Shown here: positions 36,804 to 60,153 of the stretch, piece after piece
Position numbering within the stretch: the first letter of the stretch is position 1
How the letters are laid out: every line of letters begins with the position of its first letter
Virus record (IMG/VR): IMGVR_UViG_3300032116_000025
DNA: 64,000 nucleotides
Strand: one strand, 5' to 3'
Origin: a virus
The notes under the pieces: generated by a model
The model's input: only the letters and a program-made list of their open reading frames with translations
Told to the model about the DNA's origin: nothing
The model's database searches: none
Made by a program: the position numbers and the translations under genes

Positions 36804-38633
36804 TTACTCCGGACCTAGAGCGTAGTCGTTAGACGCCTGCCACGAAAGCTCTTCAAGCGCAGCGTCTTCGCTCGCACTCTTGGCGGCTTCTGATCCAGAC
36901 TCGCGAATGGGGGCCATAATGTCAGGCCGCTTTACCTCAAACATCGAGGCCAATAAGCAGTAAACCAGCGCGTGAAAGCTGTCGTCTGGAGTACTTCTTG
37001 GGTGGTCATACCTAAGCATTCTTAGGTTGTCCGAGTATTCAGACCGGATAGCGAGCATGTCGTCTGCAAACGGAGACTTAAACTCGTCCCACGCCGGAAA
37101 CCTGATCTTTGCCGACTTGATCGCGTTAAACACGTCGCTCATAATCGGTGTGCGAAAACATAGAAACCGGTGCAAGGCTCCTTTATACGCCACCTTATTG
37201 GGAGCCCGAACGACGTACTGGTACTGGTGAATGCGCTGTGGGCCAAACAGGGAGCTGAGCACCTTGTTGGGATGAAAGCCCATGCCCCAGTCGCACCCTA
37301 CAAACTTGAGCCTAAACTTGCGAATGAGCCGCTCAAGCTCTTTGATCTGAAGTTCCGGGTCCGTCAGCTGCTTGTCGAAGCGCTTTGCGTATACGACCTG
37401 GAAGCTGGAATCGGCGCGAGTGTATCCACCAACGAATAGAACCGTGTAGCTGTGCTCGCCCGTTCCCCAGTCCACCCCTCCGTATAGGGTGTGGCTCTGG
37501 GCGATCTTTACAACCTCTTCCTCATCCATGCTGTACTTGTCATCGCATACGCGGATGACTTCAGCCCTGGTGATCGGCTTTGTTCCGGAGTCATAGCTCA
37601 TCGCCATGACCTCGTTCATGAACTGCGCCGTCGGGTACCTTTCCCGATCAGATAGGATCGTGTTCCACTGCTTGTACGGGTCGTCTGACCCCGTGTTTGG
37701 TTTCCAGTACCAAGGCACCATGAGGCGGCAGACGCGAAAGCCCTCGAACTCCGCCCCCGGGTTCATCTGCACCCACTCAGCCATAGGGTGCTCTGGGTTG
37801 ATAGCCGCGCCGCACCTATCGCAGATAGGTCCGCGCTTCCCGATGTTCTTGTCGCCTAGGACGTTCCAGTGCCAGGTGTACGGCTTATTCGGCGTCCCGT
37901 GGCGTTCACAAGGAATCACCCACTCTGACTGAGTGGAGTGCTTGGCCCAGTAGTTTTCGATTGTGTTGTCGAACGTCTTGGGCGTCCCGGAGTATACGAA
38001 GAGCCTGTCCTTGTGGTGGGAGGAGGCCTCCTCAATAACCGGCATGAGGTCCCAGAGCATGTCCTGAATCTCGTCAACAAAGATCGAGTTTGTGGACAAG
38101 CCGCGGATACGATCAGCGGACAGGAACGCGTACCGGAGATAAATTTTGCTCTTGTTGGAGAACTCTTTCTCCAAGATGTTCATCACTAGGTTCTTGTGCG
38201 TCATTCCCCGGATCAGCGGGGAGATGTCGATGATGTCTGCCAAACGGGCGTTAGAAAACACCTTGGTCTGCATCGCCGAGGGTGTGACAAACAGGGACGT
38301 GTACATTGGCCGCATGACGCTAAGCGCAAGCAGCTTGTTGCCGAGTGTCGTCGACTTTTCAGTCTGACGGCTGGTCATCAACAGGATCTTCTTAGACGGG
38401 GTGTCGTAGGGACGTACGAGGTACCGCCGCTCAGAGAAGTCCATGGGCAAGAGAGTTCCAGTGTCCCCGCCCTTGATCTTGATGAACTTGGACGCCCACT
38501 GAGACGGTCTAAGGTGAATCCGACCACCAGAGGTCGTCTTCCGCTTTCCAGAAAACGGGTCATCGACCTTCCGGCCCGACACGCGTACGATGGGTGACGT
38601 GTCTAAGTCGCTAAAGTTAGGTCTCGATGGCAT
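36804..38633 (-). CDS. terminase large subunit (GpA-like)
   Basis: Walker A-like SRQTEKST, Walker B FVDE, SGTP motif III, Cys ribbon, nuclease GVDWG...PDDSFHA. Confidence 0.9.
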   Translation of the reverse strand: MPSRPNFSDLDTSPIVRVSGRKVDDPFSGKRKTTSGGRIHLRPSQWASKFIKIKGGDTGTLLPMDFSERRYLVRPYDTPSKKILLMTSRQTEKSTTLGNKLLALSVMRPMYTSLFVTPSAMQTKVFSNARLADIIDISPLIRGMTHKNLVMNILEKEFSNKSKIYLRYAFLSADRIRGLSTNSIFVDEIQDMLWDLMPVIEEASSHHKDRLFVYSGTPKTFDNTIENYWAKHSTQSEWVIPCERHGTPNKPYTWHWNVLGDKNIGKRGPICDRCGAAINPEHPMAEWVQMNPGAEFEGFRVCRLMVPWYWKPNTGSDDPYKQWNTILSDRERYPTAQFMNEVMAMSYDSGTKPITRAEVIRVCDDKYSMDEEEVVKIAQSHTLYGGVDWGTGEHSYTVLFVGGYTRADSSFQVVYAKRFDKQLTDPELQIKELERLIRKFRLKFVGCDWGMGFHPNKVLSSLFGPQRIHQYQYVVRAPNKVAYKGALHRFLCFRTPIMSDVFNAIKSAKIRFPAWDEFKSPFADDMLAIRSEYSDNLRMLRYDHPRSTPDDSFHALVYCLLASMFEVKRPDIMAPIRESGSEAAKSASEDAALEELSWQASNDYALGPE

Positions 38634-40101: not shown

Positions 40102-42173
40102 CCAGACACCAAGCCGTCGTCCTCCAGCTTTCGGAGGGAGAGCGCCCGCAGACCGCGCACAGCTTCGTCAAGTCCGCGCGCCGCACGAGCCGTGGCACCC
40201 TCCGGAATCTCCGTAAGACCAAGCCGAGCGACGAGTAGTAGCTCGCAGATCATAGAGAGCGCCTTCTCAAGGTACGGAAGGCGGCTGATGAACATACGCA
40301 CGTTCTCAGAGTTGATGAACCCAAGGCTGAGAACGGCGTCCACAGTCATCGCGTCTGGGAGCACGGCGGCCTCCTTGACGAGGTCTACCCGCAGCTGACG
40401 GATGCTGGCCGCGTTTGCAGATGCGGCCTTACGCATAGCACCAAAAGCGTCGTGAGCGGTCTTTACGTCAACTAAGCCCGACACGTCGACAAACCCGTCT
40501 TCGGCAGACGCCAGTTTGTCTACGGCGCTCTGAGCGCTTAATCCGGCAAGACAAAGAACCATCATTGCTTGGTCGCTGTCTAGTGAGCGGGGAAACATCC
40601 CGGCAAGTTTGGGCAGGTTATCAAACCGGAAGTAGTACTCGCCCTCACCAGACCCCGTGATGTGAATGGACCTGTCCACAACGGCGGCGGCGGTTTTTGC
40701 CAGATCAGCCGGCTCCTCGATGAGCTGGATCGCAACCTCAGTGTCCAGCGGAAGGAACTTGACGGCGGGGGTTACATGGAACTCGCCGCCCAAGGCTCGC
40801 ATACCTGACATGCCGGGAACGATGCACACCTTCGACTCGTGCCCAGTCATGGTGCGCACTAAGTAACAATCCCCACCGTTCATCTGGGCCTCAGACCCAA
40901 GAACCATAAGAGGGACAGTACCTTCGATGCCGCCCTGGCCTGCTACGTAGAAGATGCCCGGCCCCTTTGCTGGAGCTGAGGGTAGATCGATTCCGGTGCC
41001 AACGTGCGCACCGGCAATCTGACTCTGAACAGACGCCACAGCCCCGTTTGTAAACACTGCAAGCGGAACGCGGGTGCCATCAAGGTCTAGTAAGTTTGGA
41101 AGAACCCACCCGGTCATGTCCTTCCCCGCAAGGGTACGGACCTTATAGATCCCGGGCTTCTCTACCACGGACCACTTCGACGCGTGCGGGTCTACGCTCT
41201 CATCGACAACCGGCTGTGTAGAAAGCGTAACCGTTCCCTGAGTGTCTACCTTGTGGGTAACCTCGGGACCCGCAAACTTTAGAAAATCGCGGCGGTCCAT
41301 CCAAGTGGGGTTGGTGTGGTAGAACACCTCTCGGCTAGCTACCTTTACCCAGTAGCCTTCCCCGGGCTCAAAGCCTAGCTGGATGACGCTGGGCTTCGCA
41401 GAGTCGGCAGCCAGCTTCATCGCGTTCGCTGCCGAGGACGCGGAAGTAGCTTCAAACGAAGCCAAGAGCCGAATCGCATCGCTGCTGGCCGCGTTTTCCA
41501 CAACAGCGGACAGCAGAGCCTCGTCTGACGATAGCTTGCTCGCCAAAGCCTCTAAGTCCGGCTTCAGCGCTGATGGGCCGACAACGTCCTCAAGAAGCTC
41601 AAAACGCTGGTCGGCGCTCAGCTTCATGCCGGGGCCTTGAATCATCGTTACGGCGCCAGCAGTTCCGCCGTCAGAGCCCTGAGAAATGCCAGCGCCAAAG
41701 GTGTTGTCTGAGCGTCCGGGCGGGTAGAAAAGGTTCCACAGGCTGCTGTCGCCGCTGTCCTCCGTAACCATCTCAAAGGTCTCAGGACGAAACAGCGCTT
41801 CTCGTAGACGCGTTCCATTTAGCGGAAGCATCTTCCCGCTTGACGTCATCAGGATGTCTAGCGGCTGAAGTTCGTGCCCCTTCACAATGACTGGAATCAA
41901 GACCTTCTTAGAGGCTGTGCCGGTCCTAGTTACGGCAAGCGCGCTGTCTGTCGTGTTTGCCAACACGATGCAGCCAAGGCCATAGCCCTGCTCCTCGTCC
42001 ACCTGCATGAACATGACCTTGGGAGTGTAGTCCGCTACCTCCGGCACCTGGCGGTAAAGCTCACTAAGAACCTCCCGAGACCACATCTGGGGGTTTTCGC
42101 TGAGTTCGATGCCCGCGAGCTTGTTCTGCTCAAAGGATAGCGTGGGGCGGTAGGTGAACAGGTCAGAGTTCAT
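40098..42173 (-). CDS. virion structural protein, KxA-rich
   Basis: About 690 aa; start chosen at the ATG at 42173, 7 nt after TGCTACCAT. Confidence 0.8.
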   Translation of the reverse strand: MNSDLFTYRPTLSFEQNKLAGIELSENPQMWSREVLSELYRQVPEVADYTPKVMFMQVDEEQGYGLGCIVLANTTDSALAVTRTGTASKKVLIPVIVKGHELQPLDILMTSSGKMLPLNGTRLREALFRPETFEMVTEDSGDSSLWNLFYPPGRSDNTFGAGISQGSDGGTAGAVTMIQGPGMKLSADQRFELLEDVVGPSALKPDLEALASKLSSDEALLSAVVENAASSDAIRLLASFEATSASSAANAMKLAADSAKPSVIQLGFEPGEGYWVKVASREVFYHTNPTWMDRRDFLKFAGPEVTHKVDTQGTVTLSTQPVVDESVDPHASKWSVVEKPGIYKVRTLAGKDMTGWVLPNLLDLDGTRVPLAVFTNGAVASVQSQIAGAHVGTGIDLPSAPAKGPGIFYVAGQGGIEGTVPLMVLGSEAQMNGGDCYLVRTMTGHESKVCIVPGMSGMRALGGEFHVTPAVKFLPLDTEVAIQLIEEPADLAKTAAAVVDRSIHITGSGEGEYYFRFDNLPKLAGMFPRSLDSDQAMMVLCLAGLSAQSAVDKLASAEDGFVDVSGLVDVKTAHDAFGAMRKAASANAASIRQLRVDLVKEAAVLPDAMTVDAVLSLGFINSENVRMFISRLPYLEKALSMICELLLVARLGLTEIPEGATARAARGLDEAVRGLRALSLRKLEDDGLVSG

Positions 42174-42216
42174 GGAAGGCATGGTAGCACCGTCTTGTGT
42201 GGCGGGAGAATAAGGA

Positions 42217-43335
42217 TCAGGTGGAAACTTTCACCTTTTGAGACAAGAACTGAGTCGGGACTGGCGGCGTAACGCTCCCCGGAGCGATTGCGTTGATGGC
42301 CGCCGCCAGCTGGCCCAAGTAGACTACTAGAGGCTCCCCCAGCACCGCGGAGTTCGCCGCCGAGGAATCGCCTAAAAAGGTGTTCCCCGATGTGATTACA
42401 CTGGGGGCCTTGATTGTAGCCTGAGAGCCACCTTCAAGAATAGCGGACCCGCCCGACTTGTAGGACAGATCGCCGTCTACGTCTACGGTGTGGTTCCCCT
42501 TTACCCGTAGAGAGTAGTTCGTCCCGATCATCTCGGTCTTCTCCCCCTCTACGGTGAGAAGCATCGAGTAAACCTCGTCCGCAACCTCTCCCGTATCTCG
42601 GTCGATGTTCTGCGGGGCTACGTAGACTTCCCAGGCAACCTTATCGCCGCCACCAGGCCCCGTCACCGGCAGGTGACGGACGCGCACGGTGGCCTTCTCG
42701 TCTTGCGCAAACTCGTTTGCGTGGAACGTCCAGGTTGCTGGGGCGTCTCCGCCCGGGTCGTCCTCTACTCTTCCTACGGTCCACGAGATGTCTCCGCCAA
42801 AGGCGTTCATCTCGTAGTTCTCGCAGAAGTCTTTGATGTAGTTCAGGATCGGGATGTAGATCCTTTGCGCAATCGGGGTGGCGCCTAGTTGCAGGATCCC
42901 TCCCCGCCGCAATACGACAAAGTTCTCGTCGCGGGTTGTAAGCGCGATGTCTCCCGGTTGTAGATCAGGCCGGCGAGACTTGAACTCCACGTTCGACATG
43001 GACCCAGCGCCGTCTGGGGTAGACCGCTCCGGCTCCCCGTCCGTAGAGGCACGAACGCCGGCCGCCCCGATGTACCCGAGGATGAACGGCGGCGTGTTGT
43101 CGCTAGGCCAAAACAGATAGCAGAGAGCACCTATCTCTGGAAGGTGGTGCACTCCTTCCCCGTTTTCATAGTGGTGGTAGGGCACAAGACACTGGATGTC
43201 CTCTACCGTCTTGTTGCTGTGCCGGGTGTCGCAGGTAACCGTGTACGACTTACGGTTGACATCGGTGATCACAGCTTCCTCGACGCGGACCTGCGAGTAA
43301 GACGCATGTGACGGAGCGTCGCGAGACCTAGCCAT
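42217..43335 (-). CDS. baseplate spike/hub protein (gpV/gp5-like, putative)
   Basis: N-terminal OB-like region with HLPEIGA; C-terminal VxG beta-helix repeats (VKGNHTVDVDGD) and LG....AVLGE. Confidence 0.65.
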   Translation of the reverse strand: MARSRDAPSHASYSQVRVEEAVITDVNRKSYTVTCDTRHSNKTVEDIQCLVPYHHYENGEGVHHLPEIGALCYLFWPSDNTPPFILGYIGAAGVRASTDGEPERSTPDGAGSMSNVEFKSRRPDLQPGDIALTTRDENFVVLRRGGILQLGATPIAQRIYIPILNYIKDFCENYEMNAFGGDISWTVGRVEDDPGGDAPATWTFHANEFAQDEKATVRVRHLPVTGPGGGDKVAWEVYVAPQNIDRDTGEVADEVYSMLLTVEGEKTEMIGTNYSLRVKGNHTVDVDGDLSYKSGGSAILEGGSQATIKAPSVITSGNTFLGDSSAANSAVLGEPLVVYLGQLAAAINAIAPGSVTPPVPTQFLSQKVKVST

Positions 43336-46300
43336 CAGCGCCCGCCCGGATTCGAAGCAATGAACTGGCCGTAGGCTAGTCGAGGAATCGGGTGTGACCC
43401 ACGCACGTTAGCCGTCTCAAGGTGCTGAGCCGCCCGCCGAATGGTCTTGGACAGGTTTTCTCCCTGTAGCTTACCCATCCAGTCCGGCTGGATACGCTCT
43501 GGAACAGAGCCTACCGGAGTAATAACGGACGTATACTCGATGGGCTTCTTACCCTGAAGCACTGTCCGGTTCAGCTCGTCAAGAACCGTCCTTTGCGCGA
43601 AGTCTCCGCGCAGGTAGTGAGAGTGATCGCCGGGGTCAGTAACTCGGGCGACTCCGGTAGAGGATCTTACGGCCAGCTCTACGTGCCTACGGAGAACCCC
43701 CTCCGCCGCGTAGATGTCGCCGATCTTGTTGACCATGTGCTGCTGGGTTGCGTCAATGCCCTGCGTAGTCATCAGATCGTTTACGTTAGGGTCGCCATGC
43801 GTAAGCACTTCACCGCGGTGCGGCTTGTACCCGGCCACTACATGTTGGAGCGGCTTCTGACGGGTCTCTAGTGGGCGCTTAGACCCTTCGGTATGAATGG
43901 CCCACACACCTTCGCGAGACCGCTCTACCTTTGTCACCGGCGATGCGGCGTGGGCTACAGCCGCATCCATAAGACTCGGCTTTGCTGCGTTGAACATGCG
44001 CTGCACGTCACCGAACACAGCCACGGTCTGTCCCTTTGTAGACACGATGCCCTGGCCGTGGGTCTGCTTAAGCATGATCTGCGCGGCACGCTCGCCAAGA
44101 GCATGAGCTGCAATGATTCCGGCGTTTTCTCCGTGAGAGTACTCTTTGCCGCTAGGATGTATACCCATGCAGTGAGAGCAAACCCCGGCGGGCATACGAC
44201 ACTTTAGCGGGCTGCGAACAACAAGCTGCCCCACCCTGGCTTTATCCGCCTCAGACAGAATCGTAGGCGTAACAACCGTACCGGCTCTGTGGACCCGGTC
44301 TCCTAGCTTTGTGTCCGAAGCCAGGCGTCGATCTACGATATCCTTGTCGGTCAACGGAAGCGCAATTCCAGAAGCAGTGCCGCAGTCTACCCCGGTGATC
44401 GGCTGATCAATGTTGGCCTGCACAAGCAGCTTGCTCATGTAGCCAGGCTCTCGGACAGAATCTGTCTTTTGAATTACGCCTCGGCGCGCTCCAGCAGCAG
44501 AAAGGAAGTAACCGCCAACGTCGACGCCTTCCGCAAACGACCGGGTAAGCGGAACACGGGAGGGGCGACCTAGGTGATCCTCGACCAGCATCGGGGCCAT
44601 TACTAGGCCCTGGAACTGCTCGTGCTTAGCCTTGATCCCGCTGCTCGCCATGTCACTAATGTGGGTGGGGTTTCCCTTGTAGTGCTGGTTATAGACGTCA
44701 TGAAGCTGCCGGGTTGCGGCCAGCCACTTCTCAGTAGTCGCTTCACGGCTTGGGCCCGTTAAGCCTTCTACCTCTTTTTGTGTCTTATTGATGATCTGTC
44801 CACGAGCTTCGCGGAGCGGCTCTAGGTCTTTCAAAGATACGGTATGGCCAGACTCGTAGGCCATCTGGAAGCCAAGGCGGCTTAGGCCGTCTACGGTGGG
44901 GACGAAGATGTGAGGGTTTTGCTTTGCCACCTCGGACAAAACTGTGCTTTGGAACTTTCGGTCGAAAGGCCGATCCAGCTTTGTCAGCACCTCATGCCGG
45001 TACTTTTCTGGAACAACTTGGGCAATCCTAGCCCGCCCCAGCGTCGTCTTTCCTACGCCAGAGATCGTAATGGCCTCGTTAAGGTCGAGCTTGTTTTGCC
45101 GGAAAGCAGTCTCGGCTTCTTCCTTCGTCTTAAAGGTCTTGCCCTTATCTCCACGCGGAATCGACATCCGGTAGAGGGCCAGCGCCGACTCGTTTGAGGG
45201 CGCGTAAAGTACATCTCCGCTGCTGTCGGAAAGCGTCCTCTGCGAAGGAAGGACCCGCTTAGCCTCCGCAACTGCGTGAGGAGACAGCGGAACCATCAGC
45301 GCAACGGTGTCGCCGTCGATGTCACCATTTAGCGGCGGTAGAACGAGGGGGTTTACCTTGATGGCCGCCTCGTTTGTGAGCTTGATGTTTTGACCGATGA
45401 TTCCGTACTGATGCAGAACAGGATCTCGCTTTAGAAGAATTGGCCGGGTCTCTACCTCTTTTTCGAGGGCCTTGAGCGCCGTCTCGTGCTTGTGCGAGAT
45501 CATGGTCTCTGCTTGACCGGGGGCGTACCCAAGCGCTTGAAGACGCCTAGACACCATTGGGCGCATCAGCTCTACGGCGATCTTCTTGGGAACCGCGATC
45601 TCCTCCACGCTAAGCGTGGGATCTACGACGATCGTAGCCCGAGACGTGTAGTCTTGTTTCTTGCCAATTAGCTTGTCTTGGAAGAAACCGTCCTTGGGCT
45701 GGTCGCCGGAGATCATATGGATGATTCCGGGCAGCTTCTTGTTGGGATCCTCTTTGGTTCCCCGTACATCAAGATCTAGGCCCTTCTTGCCCTTAGCTGC
45801 GGTGCCAAACAGCTCCGTCATAGCCGTGTACAACCCCCGCCGGGTATCCAGCGTAGCGTTGTACGGAACATGCTTGGACCCCTTCTCCAGCGACTCATTC
45901 GTCATCGCAAGACGACGGTAAAGAGAGTTGAGCGGGTTTACCTTGACGGTACCGTCAGGGAGCATTCCTTGCTGCCGGTAAATCGGGGGAAGGACGGGGA
46001 GGGCCTTAAGTGTCCACGCATCAGCGGGGTTCTTGCCGACCTCCTTTAGGCCAACAAGAGCATGGAGTTTGAAGTTGACCTTGTCTAGCGCGGTCCCCTT
46101 TAACTTCGGGTCCTTAAGGGCTTCACGCGTCCTTACGATCTCTTTATCCAGATCAAGCTTGGCAAGAGACTCGCGGAACGCCTTACCCCCGTATCCACCA
46201 TCCGGCAGCTTCTTTTTGCCCTCAATGATGTCTGGGATGTCGGTTTCTTTGATCCCAAGCGTGTGTGCGATTGCTTTTGAAAACACCGGGTTGGGCATCG

Positions 46301-49300
46301 GCTCAACCAGTTCGATGTGAGACCACCGCTGACCTGACGGACCGCCTGTAATGTTGCGGTCGAAGAGACCGCCCTTCACCGGCTCGTCTCCCTCTGCCCA
46401 GCGCCCCTTTGACGCCTTTGTCAGCGCTCCGGCACTAAGCTTTCGGGTCTCTTCGTCCGTCCGCGGAATCATCCGGATAGACGTGCCGTTCTTGTGCAGG
46501 TCTACTCCAAGACCTTTCAGCATGTTCTCAAACTTGTTGTATACGAAGGGCACCTTGGGCGGAGGGAGCACCTCCCCGTTGATGAGCGCTCCCCAGACCT
46601 CGCGGGCTTGGTCCTTATCGGCCTTGAGCGTCTGCATCTCAGCAAGGTTGTGGTGCAGCCCAGCAGCAAGCGCTCCGTAGATACCAAGAGATCCAAGAGA
46701 CTGAGCGCCGGTGTGGCCACCGCCGCGCGGGATCTTTGTATCGTTGTCGTAGTGGATCATCGGTGCGTCAAACTGAGTAAACGCCCGACCTCCGCTACGC
46801 ACGTGGGTCTTCTTGTCGATCTGGTGCTCTAACTGGAACACGTAGTGCGGCCCGGTAGTAACGTCACCTAGCTTGCGACCGGTCTTTGGATCAAACAAAG
46901 ACTCTGTCTCTTTAAGCCCGTGCCTGTTCAAATCGTCTTGAACCTTCTTGAGGTAGTCTACTCCCCCCTGAAAGTTCTTTACCGCGTAGGGTTGGCCGGT
47001 TTTTTCTGCGATCTTGCCAGCCGCAGTTTCTAGGATTTGGCCCGGGTTCATTCGGCCCGGCACTGAGACCGGGTTAATGAGCATTTCTACGGGCTTGCCC
47101 TGGCCGTCGTGGGGCATGTCCTTGTCGGGAAGAACCGACGTGACGATCCCCTTCGCGCTGTGGCGCGTGGAGATCTTGGAGCCTACCTGTGCGGGCTCCC
47201 GGGTCTTTACATGGACGATGATGTTTCGCCCAGACCGCGCAACGTCAATAACCTCGCCTGGGTAGTCCGAATCCCAGGTCAACGACGTATTCATGAACTC
47301 TTGGCGAAGCTTTCCACCAAGCTTGAGATTCGTGTTCTCGTCAATGCTGCTAAGCTGAGATCGCCGCGACATTGCTAGGACAAGCGGATCGCCTGGGTGA
47401 ACAATTGCACCCTTCTTTACGACGCCGTCGTCGCCAATCTTCGCCATGCGCTGCGACCCGTATACGTCCTTGTTGTAGATAAACTTGTTCTTATCGATGA
47501 TGGTTTCGTCTGAGACCATCATTACGGGTTTGTTGAGGTGCACCGACCGAAGCTTCTCAGCCGCACTCTCAGAGATGACGATGCCATCCTCGTGGTTGGA
47601 CCCGTTTGCTAGGTACGCCACGCGGAGGTTTGTCCCTAGCGCCAGTTGTCCGTTACGAGTGAAGTTGTTGTCGGCCAAGAGCTGACCCGACTTTACGCGG
47701 TCACCTTCTTTTACCAAGGGCTCGCTGTGAAGCATTCCCTTGTCGTGGTTGGTGGGGTAGTGATCGTACAGGTGTACAGAATGCTGTTTGCCAGCTGAGT
47801 CCTGTACGATGATCTCTTTAGGCCTAACCGCTTTTACAACACCGTCTATCGGAGCTTTGTGGGCGAGAAACCCACTGCCTACGAGTTTCTCAAAGGTCCT
47901 ACCAGCGCCAATCTCTACCTGAACCTTGGGTGGCTCCCGGCCCTCGATGCTGATTGCCTGCGCCATGTGTCGCGCAGACATCGTAGTCCGACCAGCCGCG
48001 TCGTTTTGCATGAACGGGACTAGGTTTGTCTCCGTAGCAAAAACCTGCGATGAGCTTGGCATCACGTAATGAGCAGACGACCATGGGAGATCATCCCTGA
48101 GTTCGCCCTTTACGTCAGACATGCGGATAGACTTCTCTCGCGGAGAAGGCTTACCGCCTTTCCAAACAACCTGGTCCGGAAGAACTACGTTGGATGTAGA
48201 CGCAATCGTAGCGTCCACATCTTCCAGCTTTCCGGTCCTTAGGTTGTACAAGCTAACGTATGGCTTTCGATCCTTAATGCCGACGCCAAACGCCAGGTGT
48301 GTGTTTACCCCGGGGTTAGACTCTGGGGTAAACACGGGGTCCAGGATGCCCAGGTGGCTTGGGTCAATCGCTGTGTTGGACTTTGTGATGCTGTGGGGGT
48401 TTGTAATTCCACCAGGACCCTGAATCGTAACCATACTCCTGTCAGAGAGCATGGAGATCGGGTTCGTCTGCTTGCCGTTGGAGGCAAGTGACGTCGTGAA
48501 CACGCTGTAGAACGGTCGCCGGATAAGATCTGGCGGCACTACGTCACGGATAACATCCGCATCGCCGGTAATAAGCTTCTTTTGGATCGACGGCTTATTT
48601 AGGGCTACAGAGACGCGGGACTTGATGTCGTCGCTTGCGCCAGCAAGCCGCTCGGCAAAGTGGTCCTTTGCTGACCACAGCTCTTTGTAACGAAGGCTAT
48701 CGATGGGATCCGGCTCACGCCGACCACCGGAGACGTCTACCAGCTTCTTAGACGCGGCAAACAGTACGTCTGGCCCTACGCTGGCGGAGTCTAAGCCGAG
48801 GTTGGCCTTGACCACCGCGGGGTCCACCTTGGTCTGCTCAAAGAGGGCTTTGACGGCAAGCTTGGGGTCGTCTTTTTCCGAAAGAGCGCGCCCAGACCAT
48901 GCCTCATGGAAGGAGCGGAGGTGCTTGTCGATGCCGCCCTTGTCCTTTACGGACTTTTGCTTGGTGACCTCAAACGCCGTGTCTCCCCAAGCAGAACGCA
49001 TCTCACTGTCTGAGATGCCGTAGGCGTGCAGCACAGAGTAAAGGGGCACCTTCCGCCCCCCGACCTTGAGGTGCAGGTAGCCCTCTTGCCCCTGCTGGAT
49101 GTCAAACGCAGCCCCCTTAGCTAACTGAAACTGCGCTTCGTACTCCCCGGGCTTCTCCGTACTCTTTACGTAAACACCCGGGCGGAGTCGCCACTGCTTT
49201 GTGATGAACTTTTCCTGCCCGCCAATGATGTAGCTGTAGTGCCTGGTCAGCTTGGGGATAGAAGCTAGCTGAATCTTCTTCTCTACCAGGCTTTTTCCGG

Positions 49301-49538
49301 TTTCTACGTCGACCACGGACACGCGTCCGGTGACTGGAGCTGCCCAGGACTTTCCCGTCATGCGGGCGTCGTGCTGCCCCTTGATGTCTCCGACGCCCTT
49401 GTCGTCGGAGACGGATACGTCCGACACACGAACCTCAAACCGGCCGGTTTTGTCCTTGATCGGAAACGTACTTCCAATCTGCTCGACCAGCTTGGTCTTC
49501 AGTTCCTCAAACTCGGCCTGCGGTTCGATAGTTAGCAC
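43335..49538 (-). CDS. single-chain fused beta-beta' DNA-directed RNA polymerase (phage, divergent)
   Basis: Beta motifs: LVPFMQND, GSKISTRHSAKG, NPVSVPGRMNPGQILE, GAQSLG. These are followed in frame by beta' motifs: GLFD, LPVLPP, GFFQDKLIGKKQDY, LLKRDPVLH, NGDIDGD, GARRG..GY, RSPLKC, GERAAQIMLKQTH. Confidence 0.95.
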   Translation of the reverse strand: MLTIEPQAEFEELKTKLVEQIGSTFPIKDKTGRFEVRVSDVSVSDDKGVGDIKGQHDARMTGKSWAAPVTGRVSVVDVETGKSLVEKKIQLASIPKLTRHYSYIIGGQEKFITKQWRLRPGVYVKSTEKPGEYEAQFQLAKGAAFDIQQGQEGYLHLKVGGRKVPLYSVLHAYGISDSEMRSAWGDTAFEVTKQKSVKDKGGIDKHLRSFHEAWSGRALSEKDDPKLAVKALFEQTKVDPAVVKANLGLDSASVGPDVLFAASKKLVDVSGGRREPDPIDSLRYKELWSAKDHFAERLAGASDDIKSRVSVALNKPSIQKKLITGDADVIRDVVPPDLIRRPFYSVFTTSLASNGKQTNPISMLSDRSMVTIQGPGGITNPHSITKSNTAIDPSHLGILDPVFTPESNPGVNTHLAFGVGIKDRKPYVSLYNLRTGKLEDVDATIASTSNVVLPDQVVWKGGKPSPREKSIRMSDVKGELRDDLPWSSAHYVMPSSSQVFATETNLVPFMQNDAAGRTTMSARHMAQAISIEGREPPKVQVEIGAGRTFEKLVGSGFLAHKAPIDGVVKAVRPKEIIVQDSAGKQHSVHLYDHYPTNHDKGMLHSEPLVKEGDRVKSGQLLADNNFTRNGQLALGTNLRVAYLANGSNHEDGIVISESAAEKLRSVHLNKPVMMVSDETIIDKNKFIYNKDVYGSQRMAKIGDDGVVKKGAIVHPGDPLVLAMSRRSQLSSIDENTNLKLGGKLRQEFMNTSLTWDSDYPGEVIDVARSGRNIIVHVKTREPAQVGSKISTRHSAKGIVTSVLPDKDMPHDGQGKPVEMLINPVSVPGRMNPGQILETAAGKIAEKTGQPYAVKNFQGGVDYLKKVQDDLNRHGLKETESLFDPKTGRKLGDVTTGPHYVFQLEHQIDKKTHVRSGGRAFTQFDAPMIHYDNDTKIPRGGGHTGAQSLGSLGIYGALAAGLHHNLAEMQTLKADKDQAREVWGALINGEVLPPPKVPFVYNKFENMLKGLGVDLHKNGTSIRMIPRTDEETRKLSAGALTKASKGRWAEGDEPVKGGLFDRNITGGPSGQRWSHIELVEPMPNPVFSKAIAHTLGIKETDIPDIIEGKKKLPDGGYGGKAFRESLAKLDLDKEIVRTREALKDPKLKGTALDKVNFKLHALVGLKEVGKNPADAWTLKALPVLPPIYRQQGMLPDGTVKVNPLNSLYRRLAMTNESLEKGSKHVPYNATLDTRRGLYTAMTELFGTAAKGKKGLDLDVRGTKEDPNKKLPGIIHMISGDQPKDGFFQDKLIGKKQDYTSRATIVVDPTLSVEEIAVPKKIAVELMRPMVSRRLQALGYAPGQAETMISHKHETALKALEKEVETRPILLKRDPVLHQYGIIGQNIKLTNEAAIKVNPLVLPPLNGDIDGDTVALMVPLSPHAVAEAKRVLPSQRTLSDSSGDVLYAPSNESALALYRMSIPRGDKGKTFKTKEEAETAFRQNKLDLNEAITISGVGKTTLGRARIAQVVPEKYRHEVLTKLDRPFDRKFQSTVLSEVAKQNPHIFVPTVDGLSRLGFQMAYESGHTVSLKDLEPLREARGQIINKTQKEVEGLTGPSREATTEKWLAATRQLHDVYNQHYKGNPTHISDMASSGIKAKHEQFQGLVMAPMLVEDHLGRPSRVPLTRSFAEGVDVGGYFLSAAGARRGVIQKTDSVREPGYMSKLLVQANIDQPITGVDCGTASGIALPLTDKDIVDRRLASDTKLGDRVHRAGTVVTPTILSEADKARVGQLVVRSPLKCRMPAGVCSHCMGIHPSGKEYSHGENAGIIAAHALGERAAQIMLKQTHGQGIVSTKGQTVAVFGDVQRMFNAAKPSLMDAAVAHAASPVTKVERSREGVWAIHTEGSKRPLETRQKPLQHVVAGYKPHRGEVLTHGDPNVNDLMTTQGIDATQQHMVNKIGDIYAAEGVLRRHVELAVRSSTGVARVTDPGDHSHYLRGDFAQRTVLDELNRTVLQGKKPIEYTSVITPVGSVPERIQPDWMGKLQGENLSKTIRRAAQHLETANVRGSHPIPRLAYGQFIASNPGGR

Positions 49539-49578
49539 CGGAGAAGTCTACCCCTTCGTGAAGAACCGGGTCAACGCG

Positions 49579-49586
49579 GCTATCAG
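49579..49586 (+). promoter_or_regulatory. GCTATCAG variant promoter core
   Basis: Divergent intergenic region, upstream of SD GAGGT and the ATG at 49602. Confidence 0.6.
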
Positions 49587-49601
49587 AGTGTAGAGGTATT
49601 T

Positions 49602-49730
49602 ATGCCCGACCCTGACCGCGAAAAAACTCATGAAGACCCACGAGACTACACCACGGAGTTCGAGGCTTCGCTAGACGAGGCCTTGAGAGACAGCATCCAG
49701 GAAGACATGGACCGAGAGGACGGCGAGTGA
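49602..49730 (+). CDS. small highly acidic protein (42 aa, not in ORF track)
   Basis: MPDPDREKTHEDPRDYTTEFEASLDEALRDSIQEDMDREDGE; has an SD and a GTGA overlap with the next ORF. Confidence 0.6.
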   Translation: MPDPDREKTHEDPRDYTTEFEASLDEALRDSIQEDMDREDGE

Positions 49731-49822
49731 TCTGGCTCGTTTGGTCTTTTCTAGGCGGACTCTGTCTAGGGCTTGTTGACGGAGTGCGAACCTCCGTCTT
49801 CTGGAGATGGGTGCTTCGATGA
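49727..49822 (+). CDS. small hydrophobic peptide (31 aa, not in ORF track)
   Basis: MIWLVWSFLGGLCLGLVDGVRTSVFWRWVLR; GTGA and ATGA couplings on both sides. Confidence 0.55.
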   Translation: MIWLVWSFLGGLCLGLVDGVRTSVFWRWVLR

Positions 49823-50178
49823 AGGCGAAAGCAAGCAAGGTAGAGCTAGTTACCGCGCCCAGATTTCTAGCAGCCAACTACGTAGAAAACGCACATACGC
49901 CAATCTGTAGTTACTGTCAACAGAGCATTGATCTTCTGGACGACGCCCTCTGCGTTATTCCCGGGCAGTGGATGGCAGACAAGTCGGAGGGCGGCGCGAT
50001 GTTCGTGCTTGAGCCGGACGTTCAGGTTCAGATCATCCAGCTAACAAATGGACAGATGGCCCTTCGGGTGGACTCCCACACCGCCAACCACGTGCACGCA
50101 GAGTGTCAGAAGCAGCTAGTCGCTGAGATGTTCGACTCCCCCTGGGGGATGGAAATCGAAGAGGAGGACTACCGATGA
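49819..50178 (+). CDS. hypothetical protein with CxxC...HxxC Zn site
   Basis: CSYC and HAEC; ATGA overlaps at both ends. Confidence 0.75.
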   Translation: MKAKASKVELVTAPRFLAANYVENAHTPICSYCQQSIDLLDDALCVIPGQWMADKSEGGAMFVLEPDVQVQIIQLTNGQMALRVDSHTANHVHAECQKQLVAEMFDSPWGMEIEEEDYR

Positions 50179-51365
50179 GCAGCGGTGTTGAAAGGCGCGG
50201 GCTGACCTACGGGCAGGCGCAAATCCGAGTACACGAAAATCTCCGCATCCAGGCGAAGCTTTCTACGCAGAACGACAGTGAGGTTCTAAACACCCCCTGC
50301 CTCATGGCAGGGGTTGGCGGGGGAAAGACCTCCATGGCCCGCAGCGAAGCTCAGCGGTTTGAGCTTCCCCTTCGTGCCATCAATAACGGGGAGAACAGCG
50401 ACCCAACGGACATGAGCGGTGTTCCGGTTCCTGCGCTCATCCGAGATCTGATGGAGAGGGGAACCAACTCCGAAAAGTCAGGAGCCCAGGATGCCTACAT
50501 GGAGTGGGTTCTTAACCGGTACGCGCTAGAGGCCTGCCAAGAAGGTGTATTCCTTTTCCTCGATGACATCGACAAGGCGCCCCCGCCGATTCAAGGGGCA
50601 CTCCTTGGAATTATTGGCAACCGCAAGTTCCGGGATCGAAGTATCCACCCCCACACGCTAATCATGGCTGCGGGCAACAGAACTTCAGACGACATCTACG
50701 CCCATCAGATCTCAGAGAGCCTAAAGACGCGGCTCACAATCATCGAGATGGAGCCAGATGTTCTGTCGTTCTGCGACTACGGTGTGCGTACGGGCAGAAT
50801 CCACGAGATCGTTTGCGGGTTCTTACAGTACCGGCCGGAGTACCTACACAAGTGGATTGAGGGTGTAAATCGCTTCCCCACCCCGCGTGGGTGGCGAGAA
50901 GTGTCCGTCCACTTCTCGGAAAGCCCCGACCCGTTTATGGACGGCTTGCACAACGGGTCGAAAGACAACTGGAAACAGATCGTATCTGAGAAGTGCGGAG
51001 AACCGGTCAGCAAAGACTTCTGGGCATGGTTCAAGATCATCCGCAAGGTTGACGTTCAGAAGGTCCTTCGTTCTGGGTCCATCGACGCAGTTCAAGGCGA
51101 CGACGGGAAAACCACTGACAAGCGAATGGCAGAGTTTGCGGCGGTGTTCGCGATTGCCCAAGAGCTAAACAACAACGGAGTGAAGAAGGAATACTCCGGG
51201 TTAAACACCTTGTTCGACAACGCCAACAAGGCCGGCGTATCTAAGGAAATGCGGGTGGCGCTAGCTGTTCAGCTAAAGCGAGACGTACGTACTCAGATCG
51301 CCAAGATGTTTACGAAGGCGGCAGATCAAATGATGGAAGTTCTCATTCCCACGGAGTCTGCTTGA
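50175..51365 (+). CDS. MoxR-like AAA+ ATPase
   Basis: Walker A GVGGGKT, DMSGVP, Walker B FLFLDD, AAGNR, L.TR, FPTPRGW. Confidence 0.85.
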   Translation: MSSGVERRGLTYGQAQIRVHENLRIQAKLSTQNDSEVLNTPCLMAGVGGGKTSMARSEAQRFELPLRAINNGENSDPTDMSGVPVPALIRDLMERGTNSEKSGAQDAYMEWVLNRYALEACQEGVFLFLDDIDKAPPPIQGALLGIIGNRKFRDRSIHPHTLIMAAGNRTSDDIYAHQISESLKTRLTIIEMEPDVLSFCDYGVRTGRIHEIVCGFLQYRPEYLHKWIEGVNRFPTPRGWREVSVHFSESPDPFMDGLHNGSKDNWKQIVSEKCGEPVSKDFWAWFKIIRKVDVQKVLRSGSIDAVQGDDGKTTDKRMAEFAAVFAIAQELNNNGVKKEYSGLNTLFDNANKAGVSKEMRVALAVQLKRDVRTQIAKMFTKAADQMMEVLIPTESA

Positions 51366-52609
51366 TTAATGAAGCGTCGTTTACGAGTAAGGAGGCTCTC
51401 CGGCTTGTAAACGACGCTGTTTTTGATTTGATTCTACGGGCGGAGCTGATGGGGCTGTCCCTCATGGGAGAGGCCATCAAGATTCTACAAGACGACTCGA
51501 TCAAAACAATGTGTACCGATGGGAGAACCATCCGAGTTTCGTCTGAGTGGCTGTCCAAGAACGGACTACGCGGCAACGTTTTTGACCTACTGCATGAGTG
51601 GCTTCACTGCTTCGGCAACCACGTCGCGCGGCGTGGGAGCAGAGATCCCAGCCTGTGGAACATTGCCTGCGACATCTGGGTAGTAAAGACAGCCTCAGAA
51701 ATACTAAGCCGCCCAAATGACGCTTGGGACCCTCCTAAAGATGGGGTTCAGCCTCCCAAGTGGGCCGAGGGGCTCTCCGTAGAGGAGATCTACGACAAGC
51801 TAAAGTCTGAGCAGGACCAGCGAAAGTCATCGGGCCTTACGTCACCTGGACCGCTTAGGTCAGCTTCTCAAAGTTCGTCTAGTGATCCTAGTAGCGAAAT
51901 CCAGTCCGGTAAGGACTTCGACTACAAGAGCGCGGAAGAAGCCACGGAGCAAGAAGAGCAAGACTTCGTAGATCAGTTTACAAACGAGCTTGCCCAAGCT
52001 CAGCTGATTATGGAGATGTCCAGTGGCCAAAGCGTAGAGGATCGCTACGGGTCAAAGGTGTCATCTCGTATTACAGAGGTGTTAAGGGGCACCGTTCCTT
52101 GGTCACGGCTGCTTCGTGGGGACTTGATCGATAAGCTGGAGAAGCAGCACGCTACCTGGAGCCCTCCGCGCCGGAAATATTACCCGCTGATTCCGCTGCC
52201 TTCGTACCAAAGCACAAAGACTCGCAAGCTGGTCTTGTCGATCGACGTGTCGGCGTCCGTTGGCGAGAAGATGATGAAGGCGTTTATTTCAAACACCATG
52301 CCGGCGGCGCTGCGGGCTGATGAAACCATCGTCATTACTTTCGATCAGGTAATCCGCGAGGTGGTTCACACGCGAAGACCCAAAGACATCTTGAATCAAG
52401 TCAAGTTCTTACAGGGGGCGCATAGCTACACGGATGTCCGCCCCGTGTTTGACATGATCAGAGAAATCAACCCGTCTGCCGTAGCGATTCTTACTGACGC
52501 GTATCTATCCTACCCAGACGATCCGTACCGAGATGCCATCTTTGTGGTTCCACGGGGGGCAGGAACTCCCCCATGGGGAAAGGTGTACGTAATGGAGGAG
52601 TCTTGGTGA
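51362..52609 (+). CDS. DUF2201-like metallopeptidase + VWA domain protein
   Basis: TMCTDG, LLHEWLH, WNIACD, VPW..LL, IDVSASV (MIDAS-like), ILTDAY. Confidence 0.85.
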   Translation: MINEASFTSKEALRLVNDAVFDLILRAELMGLSLMGEAIKILQDDSIKTMCTDGRTIRVSSEWLSKNGLRGNVFDLLHEWLHCFGNHVARRGSRDPSLWNIACDIWVVKTASEILSRPNDAWDPPKDGVQPPKWAEGLSVEEIYDKLKSEQDQRKSSGLTSPGPLRSASQSSSSDPSSEIQSGKDFDYKSAEEATEQEEQDFVDQFTNELAQAQLIMEMSSGQSVEDRYGSKVSSRITEVLRGTVPWSRLLRGDLIDKLEKQHATWSPPRRKYYPLIPLPSYQSTKTRKLVLSIDVSASVGEKMMKAFISNTMPAALRADETIVITFDQVIREVVHTRRPKDILNQVKFLQGAHSYTDVRPVFDMIREINPSAVAILTDAYLSYPDDPYRDAIFVVPRGAGTPPWGKVYVMEESW

Positions 52610-53970
52610 CGGACGCGCTTCTACGAGACAGCTGCTTGGCGTTGCTAGCTCAACCCGGCGGCACCGCCCAGTTTCAGAAGATCGGACTCCTAGCGTGCGG
52701 TAGCGAGTGGGCGCACGTTATCTCGTCTGTTTCAGCTACGAAGACCTGCGAAGTAGAGTCTTACGCAGTTTCAGTAGCCCACGGCGTAAAGCCAAGCGAA
52801 CTGTACGGGCGCTTAAAGCCACGGCCCCTGGTCAACGTGCTTGAAACGAACCGCTATTACAGGGCGGCTTACCGAAGCGCATTTATCTCGCACCCACTTC
52901 ATCTGAGCCTTGCGTTTAGTGAACTACTAAACGACAGGGAAGAGGGAGACTGGCTTCTACAGGAGTACCAAGAGGCTGGCGACGCTGACAAGTACCGGGG
53001 TAGCGACTTTCTCTCAGTAAGCTGGATTCCTCCCTACACGCCCGAAAGTACCGGCAGAACCCCGTTCGCAAAGCCAAAGTGCATAGACAACATCTCGTTC
53101 ATCGCATGGTTTGATAAAAACTCGGTGAGCGAACTCGTTTCTAACGTAGACTCCTCGTTTATCGCAGAAGCGGCCAACGTTAGCGTTCACCTAAGTAGGC
53201 CGCTTGACCTGTCGATACCAGCATGGGCTGCGCTAAGCTCCCATTGGGGTCACGCAAGACCCGATTACAACTGGGTAACCGACCTCCTACGCCTTGTGCG
53301 CCCTCACAAGGCTCACGCCTTGCTGGATAACGCCGTCGGTGTTCGGCGCTCGTTTGGCATTACCCGCGACGATGCAACGCCGCGCCAGATGACACATGGC
53401 ATGCGGTCAATAGCGGGAATGACAGAAGAGGCTAGGGAGGCCATGTCTAGGCTTTACGGAAGGGCTCCGACCATTAGCGAGATCAAGGCTGTGCGGGGCG
53501 GCGGTATCGTAGATCTCCTCTACTACATGCCGTGGGTACTCCTAGAAAACGTACTCAAGGAGCACTCGTCCGACCTTCGCGCGCTTACCCTGCCCCACCT
53601 ACAGCACCTAACTGGCAGCAAGCGCTACCTGCTACAAGACCACGATCGTAGGGCAAAACTACGCGCCTACGCAGGGAGAGAAGCAGGAGATCGTATAACC
53701 GTAACGCCGAACACCACAACCAGCGATTGGTCAAAGGTGTTTACCGGGCTGGTAAACCAGTACCAAGCGTCCCGCTCCCTACGAAACAGGCTGCTTGAGG
53801 CGTGCCAAGACCCTGTGGTAGCCGCAGTCGCGTTGATGGCTAAGTTTGAGATACTAGACAAGAATCTTGTAGAGCGTGTTCTGCGCCACCACAGGAACTT
53901 TCGTCGGATCTCAGAAGTAGCAAACCAAGCTACCGAGGTCATTACAGATCCGGATAATCTAGTTACGTAA
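52606..53970 (+). CDS. hypothetical protein
   Basis: GTG at 52606 follows SD GGAG and overlaps the previous stop. Confidence 0.75.
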   Translation: MTDALLRDSCLALLAQPGGTAQFQKIGLLACGSEWAHVISSVSATKTCEVESYAVSVAHGVKPSELYGRLKPRPLVNVLETNRYYRAAYRSAFISHPLHLSLAFSELLNDREEGDWLLQEYQEAGDADKYRGSDFLSVSWIPPYTPESTGRTPFAKPKCIDNISFIAWFDKNSVSELVSNVDSSFIAEAANVSVHLSRPLDLSIPAWAALSSHWGHARPDYNWVTDLLRLVRPHKAHALLDNAVGVRRSFGITRDDATPRQMTHGMRSIAGMTEEAREAMSRLYGRAPTISEIKAVRGGGIVDLLYYMPWVLLENVLKEHSSDLRALTLPHLQHLTGSKRYLLQDHDRRAKLRAYAGREAGDRITVTPNTTTSDWSKVFTGLVNQYQASRSLRNRLLEACQDPVVAAVALMAKFEILDKNLVERVLRHHRNFRRISEVANQATEVITDPDNLVT

Positions 53971-58593: not shown

Positions 58594-60105
58594 TCAGATG
58601 CGGAAGGTCTGGGACGAGTTATCCGACGCGAGGCGCGATAGTACCACCTTTTGCGGATCGGGCATGGACTTGAAGATTCCCACGGGGTCGGTCTGGAACG
58701 ACTGGCTGAACCCCGACCCAAACGTAGTGTCTAGGTCTGCTCGACGGGAGGCCAGAGCTTTCAGCATCGCGCCGCTGACGTAGTCGCCACCGCTTCGCCA
58801 GGAGTACACGTCCTCTTCCGCGGGCTGAGCCTCGCTGAGCTTAGGCTGGCCGTAAACTGCCTCATAAGGGTCGCGGAACCCGACCCCGGGACGACCGTAT
58901 ACAAGGTCTGCACCCGATTCGTGATCTGCTTCACGAAGCATGTCTGCCATGATGTTAGGGCTGATCGAGCTGACTTTTTCAAGGAGCAACTCGTAAACCT
59001 CTTCGTGTCCGCTACCCGCGTAACTAGAGACCCGAGCGTGCAACTCCGGGTGAATAAACGGGCCGTACTCGACACCCCCGTAAGCAAGAGCAGACCCGGA
59101 GATCTTAACCCCAAGCTCGTCCGCGCGGCCCAAAACCGACTGCGAGAACACCCGCCGGTCTAGTGGGGAGAACGAGTAAAGGTGCTCGTCTAAGTACGCC
59201 GACGCGGTTTTAAGCTGGTTGACGGTGTCGATTGGGTAGAGACCCTTGTGGGGCATCGCAAAGTGCTGGTGCGATGCCTCCTTGTGGCGAACCGGGGAAG
59301 ACTCGTGGGTAAGGTCTACCGAGACACCCAGCGAGGATGTCTTAGAGGTCACGCCGGCAGAGCGGAGGGGACTTGCCTTTGCGTGCCCCCGGCGCTGCTG
59401 GTGGCTCATGGCCTCGGTGTTGTTTAGGTCCGCGACCTTCTTCGCTTGCTCCGCAAACTCTCCATGCTGTACTTGCCGGTCAAGCTTGCGGTGCGTCGGC
59501 CCATGCTGGGAGAACTGGTCTAGCGGGCCAAAAATGTAACCCGACTCTGGGCCCTCGGCACGCTGCATGGCGGCGTCCTGGTCCATTGTAAGCTGGATCT
59601 CCCGCCCCGACGCTACCTTTGCGCCCGCCATCTGATTGGCGCGGAAGACTTCCATACGCTCACGGCCCTTGGCGTTTTCTTCGCGGGCTGAGTTCGCAGC
59701 GTCCCCAATACCCTGACCAATGGTAAGCGCGTTCATCGCCATGTTAAGGAGCGCTTCCTTCTTCAAGAAGCTTGGCGGGTCCTGGTCGTACCAGCCGCAC
59801 CCCTCTACTAAGTTTGAGGCTACCTTTGCCCGTACATGATCCGGAAGAAGGTGTCCGCACTCTGCAAAGTAGAGGATGGAAGTAGCGAGGTGCCCCTCGT
59901 CATGCATAGCAAACTTGCGGAGTGTGTCCCCGTGATTGCTTGCTACTAGTGCAAACAACCGGTCCGGTAGACGCTCCAGCTCCTCGTGGTCTAGCAGACG
60001 AGAGGAGGCAAGCTTCTGGGGCAGCGAGCGCCCAGCCATCTTGTTTCGGAGAACGACTCCCTTTGGGTCGTCGTAAATGTCTAGGATCACGCCTGCGAGG
60101 TTCAT
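58594..60105 (-). CDS. head-associated KxA-rich protein with two LPD..FA / FA.P....YPID modules
   Basis: LERLPDRLFA...RKFAMHD and HFAMPHKGLYPID resemble DUF6582-like phage head modules. Confidence 0.75.
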   Translation of the reverse strand: MNLAGVILDIYDDPKGVVLRNKMAGRSLPQKLASSRLLDHEELERLPDRLFALVASNHGDTLRKFAMHDEGHLATSILYFAECGHLLPDHVRAKVASNLVEGCGWYDQDPPSFLKKEALLNMAMNALTIGQGIGDAANSAREENAKGRERMEVFRANQMAGAKVASGREIQLTMDQDAAMQRAEGPESGYIFGPLDQFSQHGPTHRKLDRQVQHGEFAEQAKKVADLNNTEAMSHQQRRGHAKASPLRSAGVTSKTSSLGVSVDLTHESSPVRHKEASHQHFAMPHKGLYPIDTVNQLKTASAYLDEHLYSFSPLDRRVFSQSVLGRADELGVKISGSALAYGGVEYGPFIHPELHARVSSYAGSGHEEVYELLLEKVSSISPNIMADMLREADHESGADLVYGRPGVGFRDPYEAVYGQPKLSEAQPAEEDVYSWRSGGDYVSGAMLKALASRRADLDTTFGSGFSQSFQTDPVGIFKSMPDPQKVVLSRLASDNSSQTFRI

Positions 60106-60145
60106 GCCTACAAAGATACTTCGTTAAACGTATGGGGGTCAACGG

Positions 60146-60153
60146 CCTATCAG
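60146..60153 (+). promoter_or_regulatory. CCTATCAG variant promoter core
   Basis: Divergent intergenic region, upstream of SD AAGGAGG and the ATG at 60172. Confidence 0.65.

Follow-up and report, generated by a model that had tools for sequence, protein, structure and literature searches.

The window analysed here is a 64,000-nucleotide (64 kb) stretch of the virus record IMGVR_UViG_3300032116_000025; within a 160,844-base freshwater metagenome contig it spans bases 26506-90505, and it covers 40% of the ∼161 kb genome of an uncultured freshwater tailed phage. One of its genes encodes P0001, which, as judged from sequence comparison, is a complete bacterial-type RNA polymerase (RNAP) β subunit joined by ∼6 residues to a β′ subunit without the zinc-binding domain. 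P0001 is the only RNA polymerase of its phage. On balance we consider it probable that P0001 is a catalytically competent single-chain core, free of α and ω, which uses a phage sigma factor and is probably packaged and injected. The relevant features of the gene are:

43335..49538, minus strand: single-chain RNA polymerase gene (P0001), one open reading frame (ORF) of 2067 residues with a GTG start
46497..49538, minus strand: β module, residues 1-1014, from Pfam and alignment to β structures
48408..48512, minus strand: counterpart of rifampicin-binding cluster I, residues 343-377, with six drug-contact positions substituted
47148-47183, minus strand: β second-barrel motif GSKISTRHSAKG, with K788, R792 and K796 invariant and H793 present in 103 of 104 homologues
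46422..46496, minus strand: β/β′ junction, a linker of ∼6 residues (HKNGTS) followed by the β′ N-terminal strand IRMIPRTDEETRKLS
46308..46370, minus strand: site of the deleted β′ zinc-binding domain, GLFD, 11 residues, WSHIEL, without cysteine
45822..45935, minus strand: β′ clamp helices (residues 1202-1239), on which the phage sigma factor is predicted to dock
45309..45329, minus strand: catalytic loop NGDIDGD, residues 1404-1410, with three aspartates invariant in 104 homologues
44424..44492, minus strand: bridge helix, residues 1683-1705, conserved in the family
44169..44387, minus strand: second zinc site, Cys1719/Cys1780/Cys1787/Cys1790, invariant in 104 homologues
44049..44096, minus strand: trigger loop GERAAQIMLKQTHGQG, from the family alignment of 104 homologues

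The domain order of P0001 is evident from Pfam, with Rpb2_6 matching residues 562-918 and Rpb1_2, Rpb1_3 and Rpb1_5 matching within residues 1292-1972, all above the curated cut-offs. The match to PF00562 in the β part has E = 2.5e-57, and the β′ domains (PF00623, PF04983 and PF04998) each exceed their cut-off. In comparison with solved structures, residues 13-1016 cover nearly the whole of an 1104-residue bacterial β subunit (E = 6e-71), and residues 1102-2000 align to residues 179-1112 of β′ (E = 2e-82); the identity to bacterial β and β′ is ∼26%. The C-terminal segment of β stops at approximately residue 1014 (nucleotide 46497) and homology to β′ is found from approximately residue 1021 (nucleotide 46478), the β′ part beginning at about β′ residue 10-20. 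The original prediction, made from the letters of the window and its ORFs, had described a single uninterrupted ORF of 2067 residues in which the β motifs precede those of β′ and are joined to them near 46500, and both the order and the position of the join are borne out. Its claim that the N-terminal zinc-binding domain of β′ is deleted also holds: a profile built from 25 family members matches β′ residues 20-67 and then 101-383, such that ∼33 residues (68-100) have no counterpart, and the four-cysteine domain is absent from 104 homologues, which have no cysteine in the 11-residue stretch. The second zinc site is kept, as had been stated. The description of the enzyme as minimal is relative: β has the length of the smallest bacterial β, and β′ lacks no more than the zinc-binding domain, its first 10-20 residues and some short inserts.

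The catalytic loop NGDIDGD was found exactly where it had been placed, and in the 104 aligned homologues its aspartates D1406, D1408 and D1410 are invariant. The remainder of the universal NADFDGD motif is not kept in the family: the first loop residue is Gly in 80 and Asn in 23 of the 104 homologues, the second is Gly in 82 and Ala in 22, and the fourth is Ile, Val, Phe or Leu. At residues 1404-1405 (45324-45329), the Asn of NADFDGD, which is invariant in cellular enzymes, is kept in the subclade of the window protein and is Gly in most of the family. The trigger loop that had been pointed out, GERAAQIMLKQTH, is present and conserved across the homologues, with the family pattern G-E-R-x-x-Q-[LI]-M-L-K-Q-T-H; G, E, R and Q of this pattern never vary, His1827 occurs in 103 of the 104 homologues and M1822 in 95, and K1824 is always Lys or Arg. 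P0001 should therefore be catalytically active as a DNA-dependent RNA polymerase: its catalytic aspartates are invariant, and the Lys, Arg and His residues of β, the bridge helix, the trigger-loop histidine and the second zinc site vary little or not at all. At the place of rifampicin cluster I the sequence is TS-LASNGKQTNPISMLSDRSMVTIQGPGG, which differs in the alignment from canonical bacterial β. Its substituted positions are, by E. coli numbering, Q513, F514, D516, H526, R529 and S531, which we take to be drug contacts; since these are replaced, P0001 is predicted to be insensitive to rifampicin.

The protein belongs to a large family. An identical protein is present on 8-9 contigs of ∼161 kb, and more than 100 full-length fused clusters were found, with lengths of 2040-2150 residues and identities to P0001 of 37-87%, on contigs of 160-200 kb. 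In an exhaustive search with the β′ half, the best 150 clusters (at 50% identity) all belong to this family and rank ahead of any cellular protein; in most of them the β′ part occupies residues ∼1020-2050 of a protein of ∼2050 residues. The members originate from freshwater, marine, sludge and other metagenomes. Many are enlarged to 2400-4739 residues by inserted inteins and homing endonucleases (PF14528, PF05204, PF14890), sometimes several per protein, as in P0011, P0022, P0045, P0058, P0099, P0241 and P0310.

In a β′ tree, in which the bacterial side consisted of four sequences, a split with an SH-aLRT of 99 separates these bacteria from all phage enzymes. Such a phylogeny had been suggested as a check of the original prediction, and P0001 is not nested among the four bacteria sampled. 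P0001 lies in a fully supported subclade of fused enzymes, and Salmonella phage Arash together with Vibrio phage D69 forms the sister group of the fused family. Rhizobium phage TM21B and Vibrio phage 1.031.O fall outside the fused family and the Arash group, and the position of Carin-5, on a very long branch, is unreliable. Matches to β′ of Thermus, Clostridioides, Streptomyces, Bacillus, Mycobacterium and E. coli have similar bit scores (223-289), and no bacterial phylum stands out as the donor. A scan of GTDB genomes matched a single bacterial rpoBC locus, at 26% identity, and thus gave no clue to the host, and a DNA search of a phage collection with the window returned no near or distant match.

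The nearest cultured phages, with ∼30% identity, are Arash and the Vibrio phages D69, D148 and D181. The portal (gp204), capsid (gp226), terminase (gp1) and several tail proteins of Arash (OQ632216.1) are matched by proteins of the window, in accordance with a common lineage. Arash and D69 both contain a gp206-type gene of 1525 residues, comprising β and the first third of β′ and adjoining the portal gene, and a separate gene for a C-terminal β′ part of ∼606 residues (gp216 in Arash, 5-7 kb away), whereas P0001 is uncut. The break corresponds to approximately residue 1492 of P0001, past the catalytic barrel. Since Arash gp206 and its D69 equivalent have the same β-β′ junction and the same loss of the zinc-binding domain as P0001, the fusion predates both lineages. 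They differ from P0001 in their catalytic loop, which reads AADYDGD instead of NGDIDGD. A location among virion genes is common to both, the polymerase gene adjoining the portal gene in Arash and lying ∼4.5 kb from it in the window. The paper on Arash labels its two RNAP genes plainly as β and β′ and is silent on a fusion (PMC10585845).

None of the ∼60 ORFs of the window that were scanned matched an α, ω or sigma family, in agreement with what had been noticed from the sequence. The four relatives that are 100% complete according to CheckV each contain one RNAP copy, and the α and ω families PF01000, PF01193 and PF01192 have no match in these genomes, with all control genomes positive. In every bacterial RNA polymerase the α2 dimer is considered to be the platform on which the enzyme assembles; because no gene for α or ω was found in the complete relatives, the covalent fusion would replace this platform.

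A sigma factor is present elsewhere in the same genome. In the window itself, tblastn searches with the sigma candidates of the relatives and with Arash gp10 and gp196 gave no match; two word-based protein searches returned 80 and 38 sigma clusters, none of them from the window's own contig, and a metagenome scan for sigma found other contigs only. Starting from the last gene of the window, five look-ups by exact protein identity along an assembly of the same phage led to a σ70-family gene encoding 272 residues (L040:2626-3444), ∼59 kb upstream of the polymerase gene (∼58.6 kb past its start) and on the same strand. The first locus reached in this way overlaps the window by 10,612 bases, with 100% identity. 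Pfam finds no sigma domain in this protein at E ≤ 0.01. It belongs to a sigma family with E = 1e-109 in a hidden Markov model search, the profile of this family matches regions 2-4 of RpoD in the PDB (E = 3e-12), and the protein is homologous to Arash gp10 (E = 5e-31). In the relatives, weak Sigma70_r2 and r4 hits are likewise located in the gene that is homologous to gp10. The gp10-type family comprises 80 clusters, and in at least six cases a member and a fused RNAP are found on contigs of equal size. The sigma gene lies in a block of large genes on the same strand, including one with an Amidase_2 domain; similarly, in Arash, gp10 lies two genes past the cell-wall hydrolase gp8.

A model of the complex of P0001 residues 1000-1330 with the sigma factor has an ipSAE score of 0.80, compared to 0.00 for the best control; the mark applied to this score is reached by 58 of 80 solved complexes and by 2 of 110 mismatched pairs. 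Across runs, 61% or more of the contacts recur, the partner pLDDT is at least 71, and the contacts lie on the clamp helices, residues 1202-1239. The modelled interface is the textbook one between sigma region 2 and the clamp helices, and the score may therefore reflect likeness to solved holoenzymes. The original prediction had considered that the enzyme might function without a sigma factor. Since the same genome encodes a σ70-family protein for which docking on the clamp helices can be modelled, a sigma-less enzyme is unlikely.

The polymerase gene opens a leftward operon, which continues through the spike- or baseplate-like gene to TerL. Virion genes surround it:

13359-16550: tail sheath
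24720-25832: major capsid protein, phrog_2522
36804-38633: TerL, matching PF05876 and phrog_675
42217..43335, minus strand: downstream gene of 372 residues, the ATG of which overlaps the polymerase stop (TGATG), with a weak match to a baseplate assembly protein
54054-55952: portal, matching Arash gp204

The portal, TerL, capsid and sheath genes justify the description of the polymerase as embedded in a virion gene module, and its stop overlaps the start of the spike-like gene at 43335, as had been remarked. Two classes of candidate promoters could serve the enzyme, i.e. the 8-mer CCTATAAG or a −35/−10-like TTGACC-N18-TAGACT:

49545..49586, minus strand: promoter-like element before the RNAP gene, CTGATAG-N4-CGTTGACC-N18-TAGACT, ending 6 nucleotides before the GTG, without a Shine-Dalgarno sequence
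60105-60153, minus strand: portal operon element (60113-60153) with its start, CTGATAG-N2-CGTTGACC-N18-TATCTT-N7-ATG, without a Shine-Dalgarno sequence
900, 1385, 1846, 6953, 7701, 11769, 12046 and 36073, plus strand: exact copies of the 8-mer CCTATAAG

The RNAP and portal operons thus have the element CTGATAG/TTGACC/TAnnnT in common. In the 110 bases 5′ of the polymerase gene of 13 phages, whose polymerases are 54-65% identical, the elements CTGATAG, CGTTGACCC and, past a variable spacer, GTAGACT are invariant, with the GTG following after 5-6 bases; the copies of the relatives are found at ∼9941-9999 of loci L004-L018. Because the element ends 6-7 nucleotides before the start codon and no Shine-Dalgarno sequence is present, it suggests that the RNAP mRNA is leaderless or near-leaderless and starts with GUG. 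Its occurrence in both operons suggests co-expression of the RNAP with the head genes from near-leaderless mRNAs. Against 0.85 expected copies, the window contains 8 of the CCTATAAG 8-mer, all of them on the plus strand, and another 47 kb of the same genome contains only one more copy. The copies lie 15-45 bases ahead of small genes led by a Shine-Dalgarno sequence, mostly within the first 12 kb, often after a terminator-like GC hairpin with a T-run, and have no −35 element. By its sequence context CCTATAAG looks like a −10-only promoter class of non-structural, possibly early, genes.

Contigs from metatranscriptomes (X16 and X20) include ten pieces of 150-330 nucleotides that map to 42000-51000, nine of them with at least 99% identity. 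They were rejected as evidence of transcription or of a leaderless start, as RNA libraries may contain DNA and the contigs do not show transcript starts.

By analogy to Arash, packaging of P0001 in the virion is plausible. In gradient-purified Arash virions, gp206 is the most-detected protein with 3516 spectra, gp216 is represented by 1210 spectra, and the sigma factor gp10 was detected in the same virions with 467 spectra and 100% coverage (PMC10585845). The second sigma factor of Arash, gp196, is unmentioned in the text or table of that paper (PMC10585845). In the mechanism that we propose, P0001 would be made together with the head proteins, its gene heading a virion operon under the same type of promoter as the portal operon. 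P0001 and the sigma factor would then be packed into the capsid and injected, and would start phage transcription independently of the host enzyme. Promoter specificity would be provided by the phage σ70-family factor, docking on the retained β′ clamp helices, and with its rewritten rifampicin pocket the enzyme would ignore the drug. The stronger proposal, that the phage packs and injects a complete sigma-dependent holoenzyme consisting of the single-chain β-β′ core and its σ70-family factor, is put forward tentatively, as a real possibility rather than as the expected outcome.

Several observations weigh against these proposals. The Arash preparation contains 116 proteins, including ribonucleotide reductase and ligases, which points to possible carry-over (PMC10585845). 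Virion proteomics among the relatives comes from Arash only, in which β′ is split. The −35/−10-like promoter before the gene could be read by host σ70 early in infection, host α and ω could be borrowed despite their absence from the phage genomes, and the sigma factor may redirect the host enzyme instead, the complex model being blind to the difference between phage and host cores. In addition, activity is a prediction for a family in which the first two loop residues differ from the universal motif, and the β′ tree sampled only four bacterial sequences.

Some of these points are accommodated by the main rival explanation, a non-virion enzyme, not injected but made once the host RNAP has read its σ70-like promoter shortly after infection, after which the single chain and the phage sigma factor would run middle and late transcription in the manner of T7 RNAP. 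TTGACC-N18-TAGACT indeed resembles the host consensus, each genome has a single RNAP set instead of the separate virion and non-virion sets of phiKZ phages, and the Arash particle preparation contains many enzymes that are unlikely to be structural. We regard this explanation as less likely in view of the promoter class that the gene has in common with the portal operon, its co-orientation with the spike-like genes and TerL, and the high spectral counts in Arash particles of both RNAP pieces and one of the two sigma factors. Moreover, the promoter letters that depart from the consensus do not vary between phages with RNAPs of only 54-65% identity, an observation that a phage-specific reader explains better than diverse host sigma factors do.

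A hybrid enzyme, in which the single chain would combine with host α2 and ω, and perhaps with a host sigma factor, and would not be self-sufficient, appears improbable. With β at full length and most of β′ kept, the α- and ω-binding surfaces may persist, and the natural β-β′ fusions of Helicobacter still use α and ω. Opposed to this are the co-occurrence of a conserved phage sigma factor with the enzyme and the identity of ∼26%, which makes the maintenance of inter-subunit surfaces with many hosts unlikely. The phiKZ and AR9 enzymes, furthermore, function without α and ω (PMC7598289).

The chance that the fusion is an assembly or frameshift artefact, or bacterial rpoBC DNA mis-binned as phage, is negligible, as nothing except the general possibility speaks for it and it is rejected by the recurrence of the same protein on 8-9 independent contigs, the identical junction in 104 homologues, the terminase, portal, capsid and sheath genes around the polymerase, the ∼26% identity to bacteria and the separate position of the family in the tree.

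Beyond the virion module, the window also encodes a type II topoisomerase subunit and a helicase, and contains the following features:

2452-6885, minus strand: minor head or virion structural protein-like protein of 1477 residues, the N-terminal 150 residues of which match phrog_4660 and phrog_20705
8761-9498, plus strand: protein of 245 residues containing a PARP-type ADP-ribosyltransferase domain (PF00644, 38.3 bits, cut-off 26.7)
49807-53970, plus strand: cassette separating the portal and RNAP operons, which adjoin each other in Arash

The 1477-residue protein could represent a large head protein, either ejected or internal. The gene of the PARP-type protein sits in the cluster of genes with CCTATAAG promoters, and its product may modify a host protein, like Alt and Mod of T4. 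The cassette consists of a 123-residue ORF, a MoxR-like AAA_5 ATPase (50175-51365), a DUF2201 metallopeptidase/VWA protein (51362-52609) and a 465-residue ORF.

Among known systems, the multisubunit RNAPs of phiKZ and AR9 are phage two-barrel enzymes related to β and β′ that work without α and ω, and one of their sets is packaged and injected (PMC7598289). They consist of 4-5 polypeptides, occur as two paralogous sets, have diverged much further and lack a σ70-family factor, whereas the window phage has one chain, one set and its own sigma factor; the contrast with split phiKZ/AR9-type enzymes that had been drawn from the sequence is therefore upheld. In crAss-like gp66, YonO and the RNAP of P23-45, which is fused to a tape measure protein, both barrels are also located in one polypeptide; of these, gp66 and the P23-45 enzyme are virion components responsible for early gene transcription (10.1101/2020.03.07.982082; PMC10770324). 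Apart from the barrels, these proteins retain little and can hardly be aligned to β and β′, unlike P0001, which aligns over nearly the whole of β and ∼900 residues of β′ (E = 1e-70 to 1e-85) and in which clamp helices, bridge helix and trigger loop are preserved. The cellular rpoB-rpoC fusions of Helicobacter and Wolbachia connect, like P0001, the C-terminus of β to the N-terminus of β′, ends which are close in the enzyme. Unlike P0001, they are ordinary cellular enzymes with α2, ω, the zinc-binding domain and NADFDGD.

The mReC phages of Weinheimer and Aylward (2020) are metagenomic tailed phages with β and β′ homologues that branch outside the cellular clades (PMC7481178). An example contig contains several split β and β′ genes, in contrast to the fused P0001, and the tables have no entry with any of the six common family lengths (2066-2074 residues) and the paper no mention of a fusion (PMC7481178). 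The mReC capsid is of the Gp23 type (PF07068) and the terminase belongs to PF03237, compared to phrog_2522 and PF05876 in the window; by the markers that define mReC, i.e. capsid, terminase and RNAP subunits, all of which differ, the window phage appears to lie outside that clade. Cobetia phage Carin-5, the Rhizobium Kleczkowskaviridae phages and Vibrio phage 1.031.O are cultured phages of ∼150-200 kb that encode a bacterial-type RNAP as separate genes. In Carin-5 (PV155638.1, 155 kb; locus L042) the genes for sigma, β (1083 residues) and β′ (927 residues) are consecutive and separate, a second layout, unfused, in which a phage combines a bacterial-type RNAP with a sigma factor of its own; this sigma factor is not detected by the gp10-family profile. 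No paper on the fused architecture was found, and reviews of jumbo-phage RNAPs (2020) and of jumbo phages (2026) give only the split phiKZ type.

If correct, the proposed role would make P0001 the first bacterial-type, sigma-using RNAP known to work without α and ω and to be delivered by the virion, the covalent fusion allowing the core to refold and assemble alone after ejection. A widespread enzyme without α, ω or zinc-binding domain of its own, which keeps almost the whole of β and β′ and relies on a sigma factor, would reveal what those parts serve, and the variant catalytic loop (Gly or Asn, then Gly or Ala) bears on the strictness of NADFDGD. Enzymes of this type would provide structural and synthetic studies with a compact core encoded by a single gene. 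The family, with more than 150 clusters at 50% identity, has gone unrecognised, and its cultured relatives, Arash and the Vibrio phages D69, D148 and D181, make these questions testable. Next to the split enzymes of the phiKZ type and the T7-like enzyme of N4, the single-chain polymerase with its sigma factor would represent a third route to host-independent transcription.

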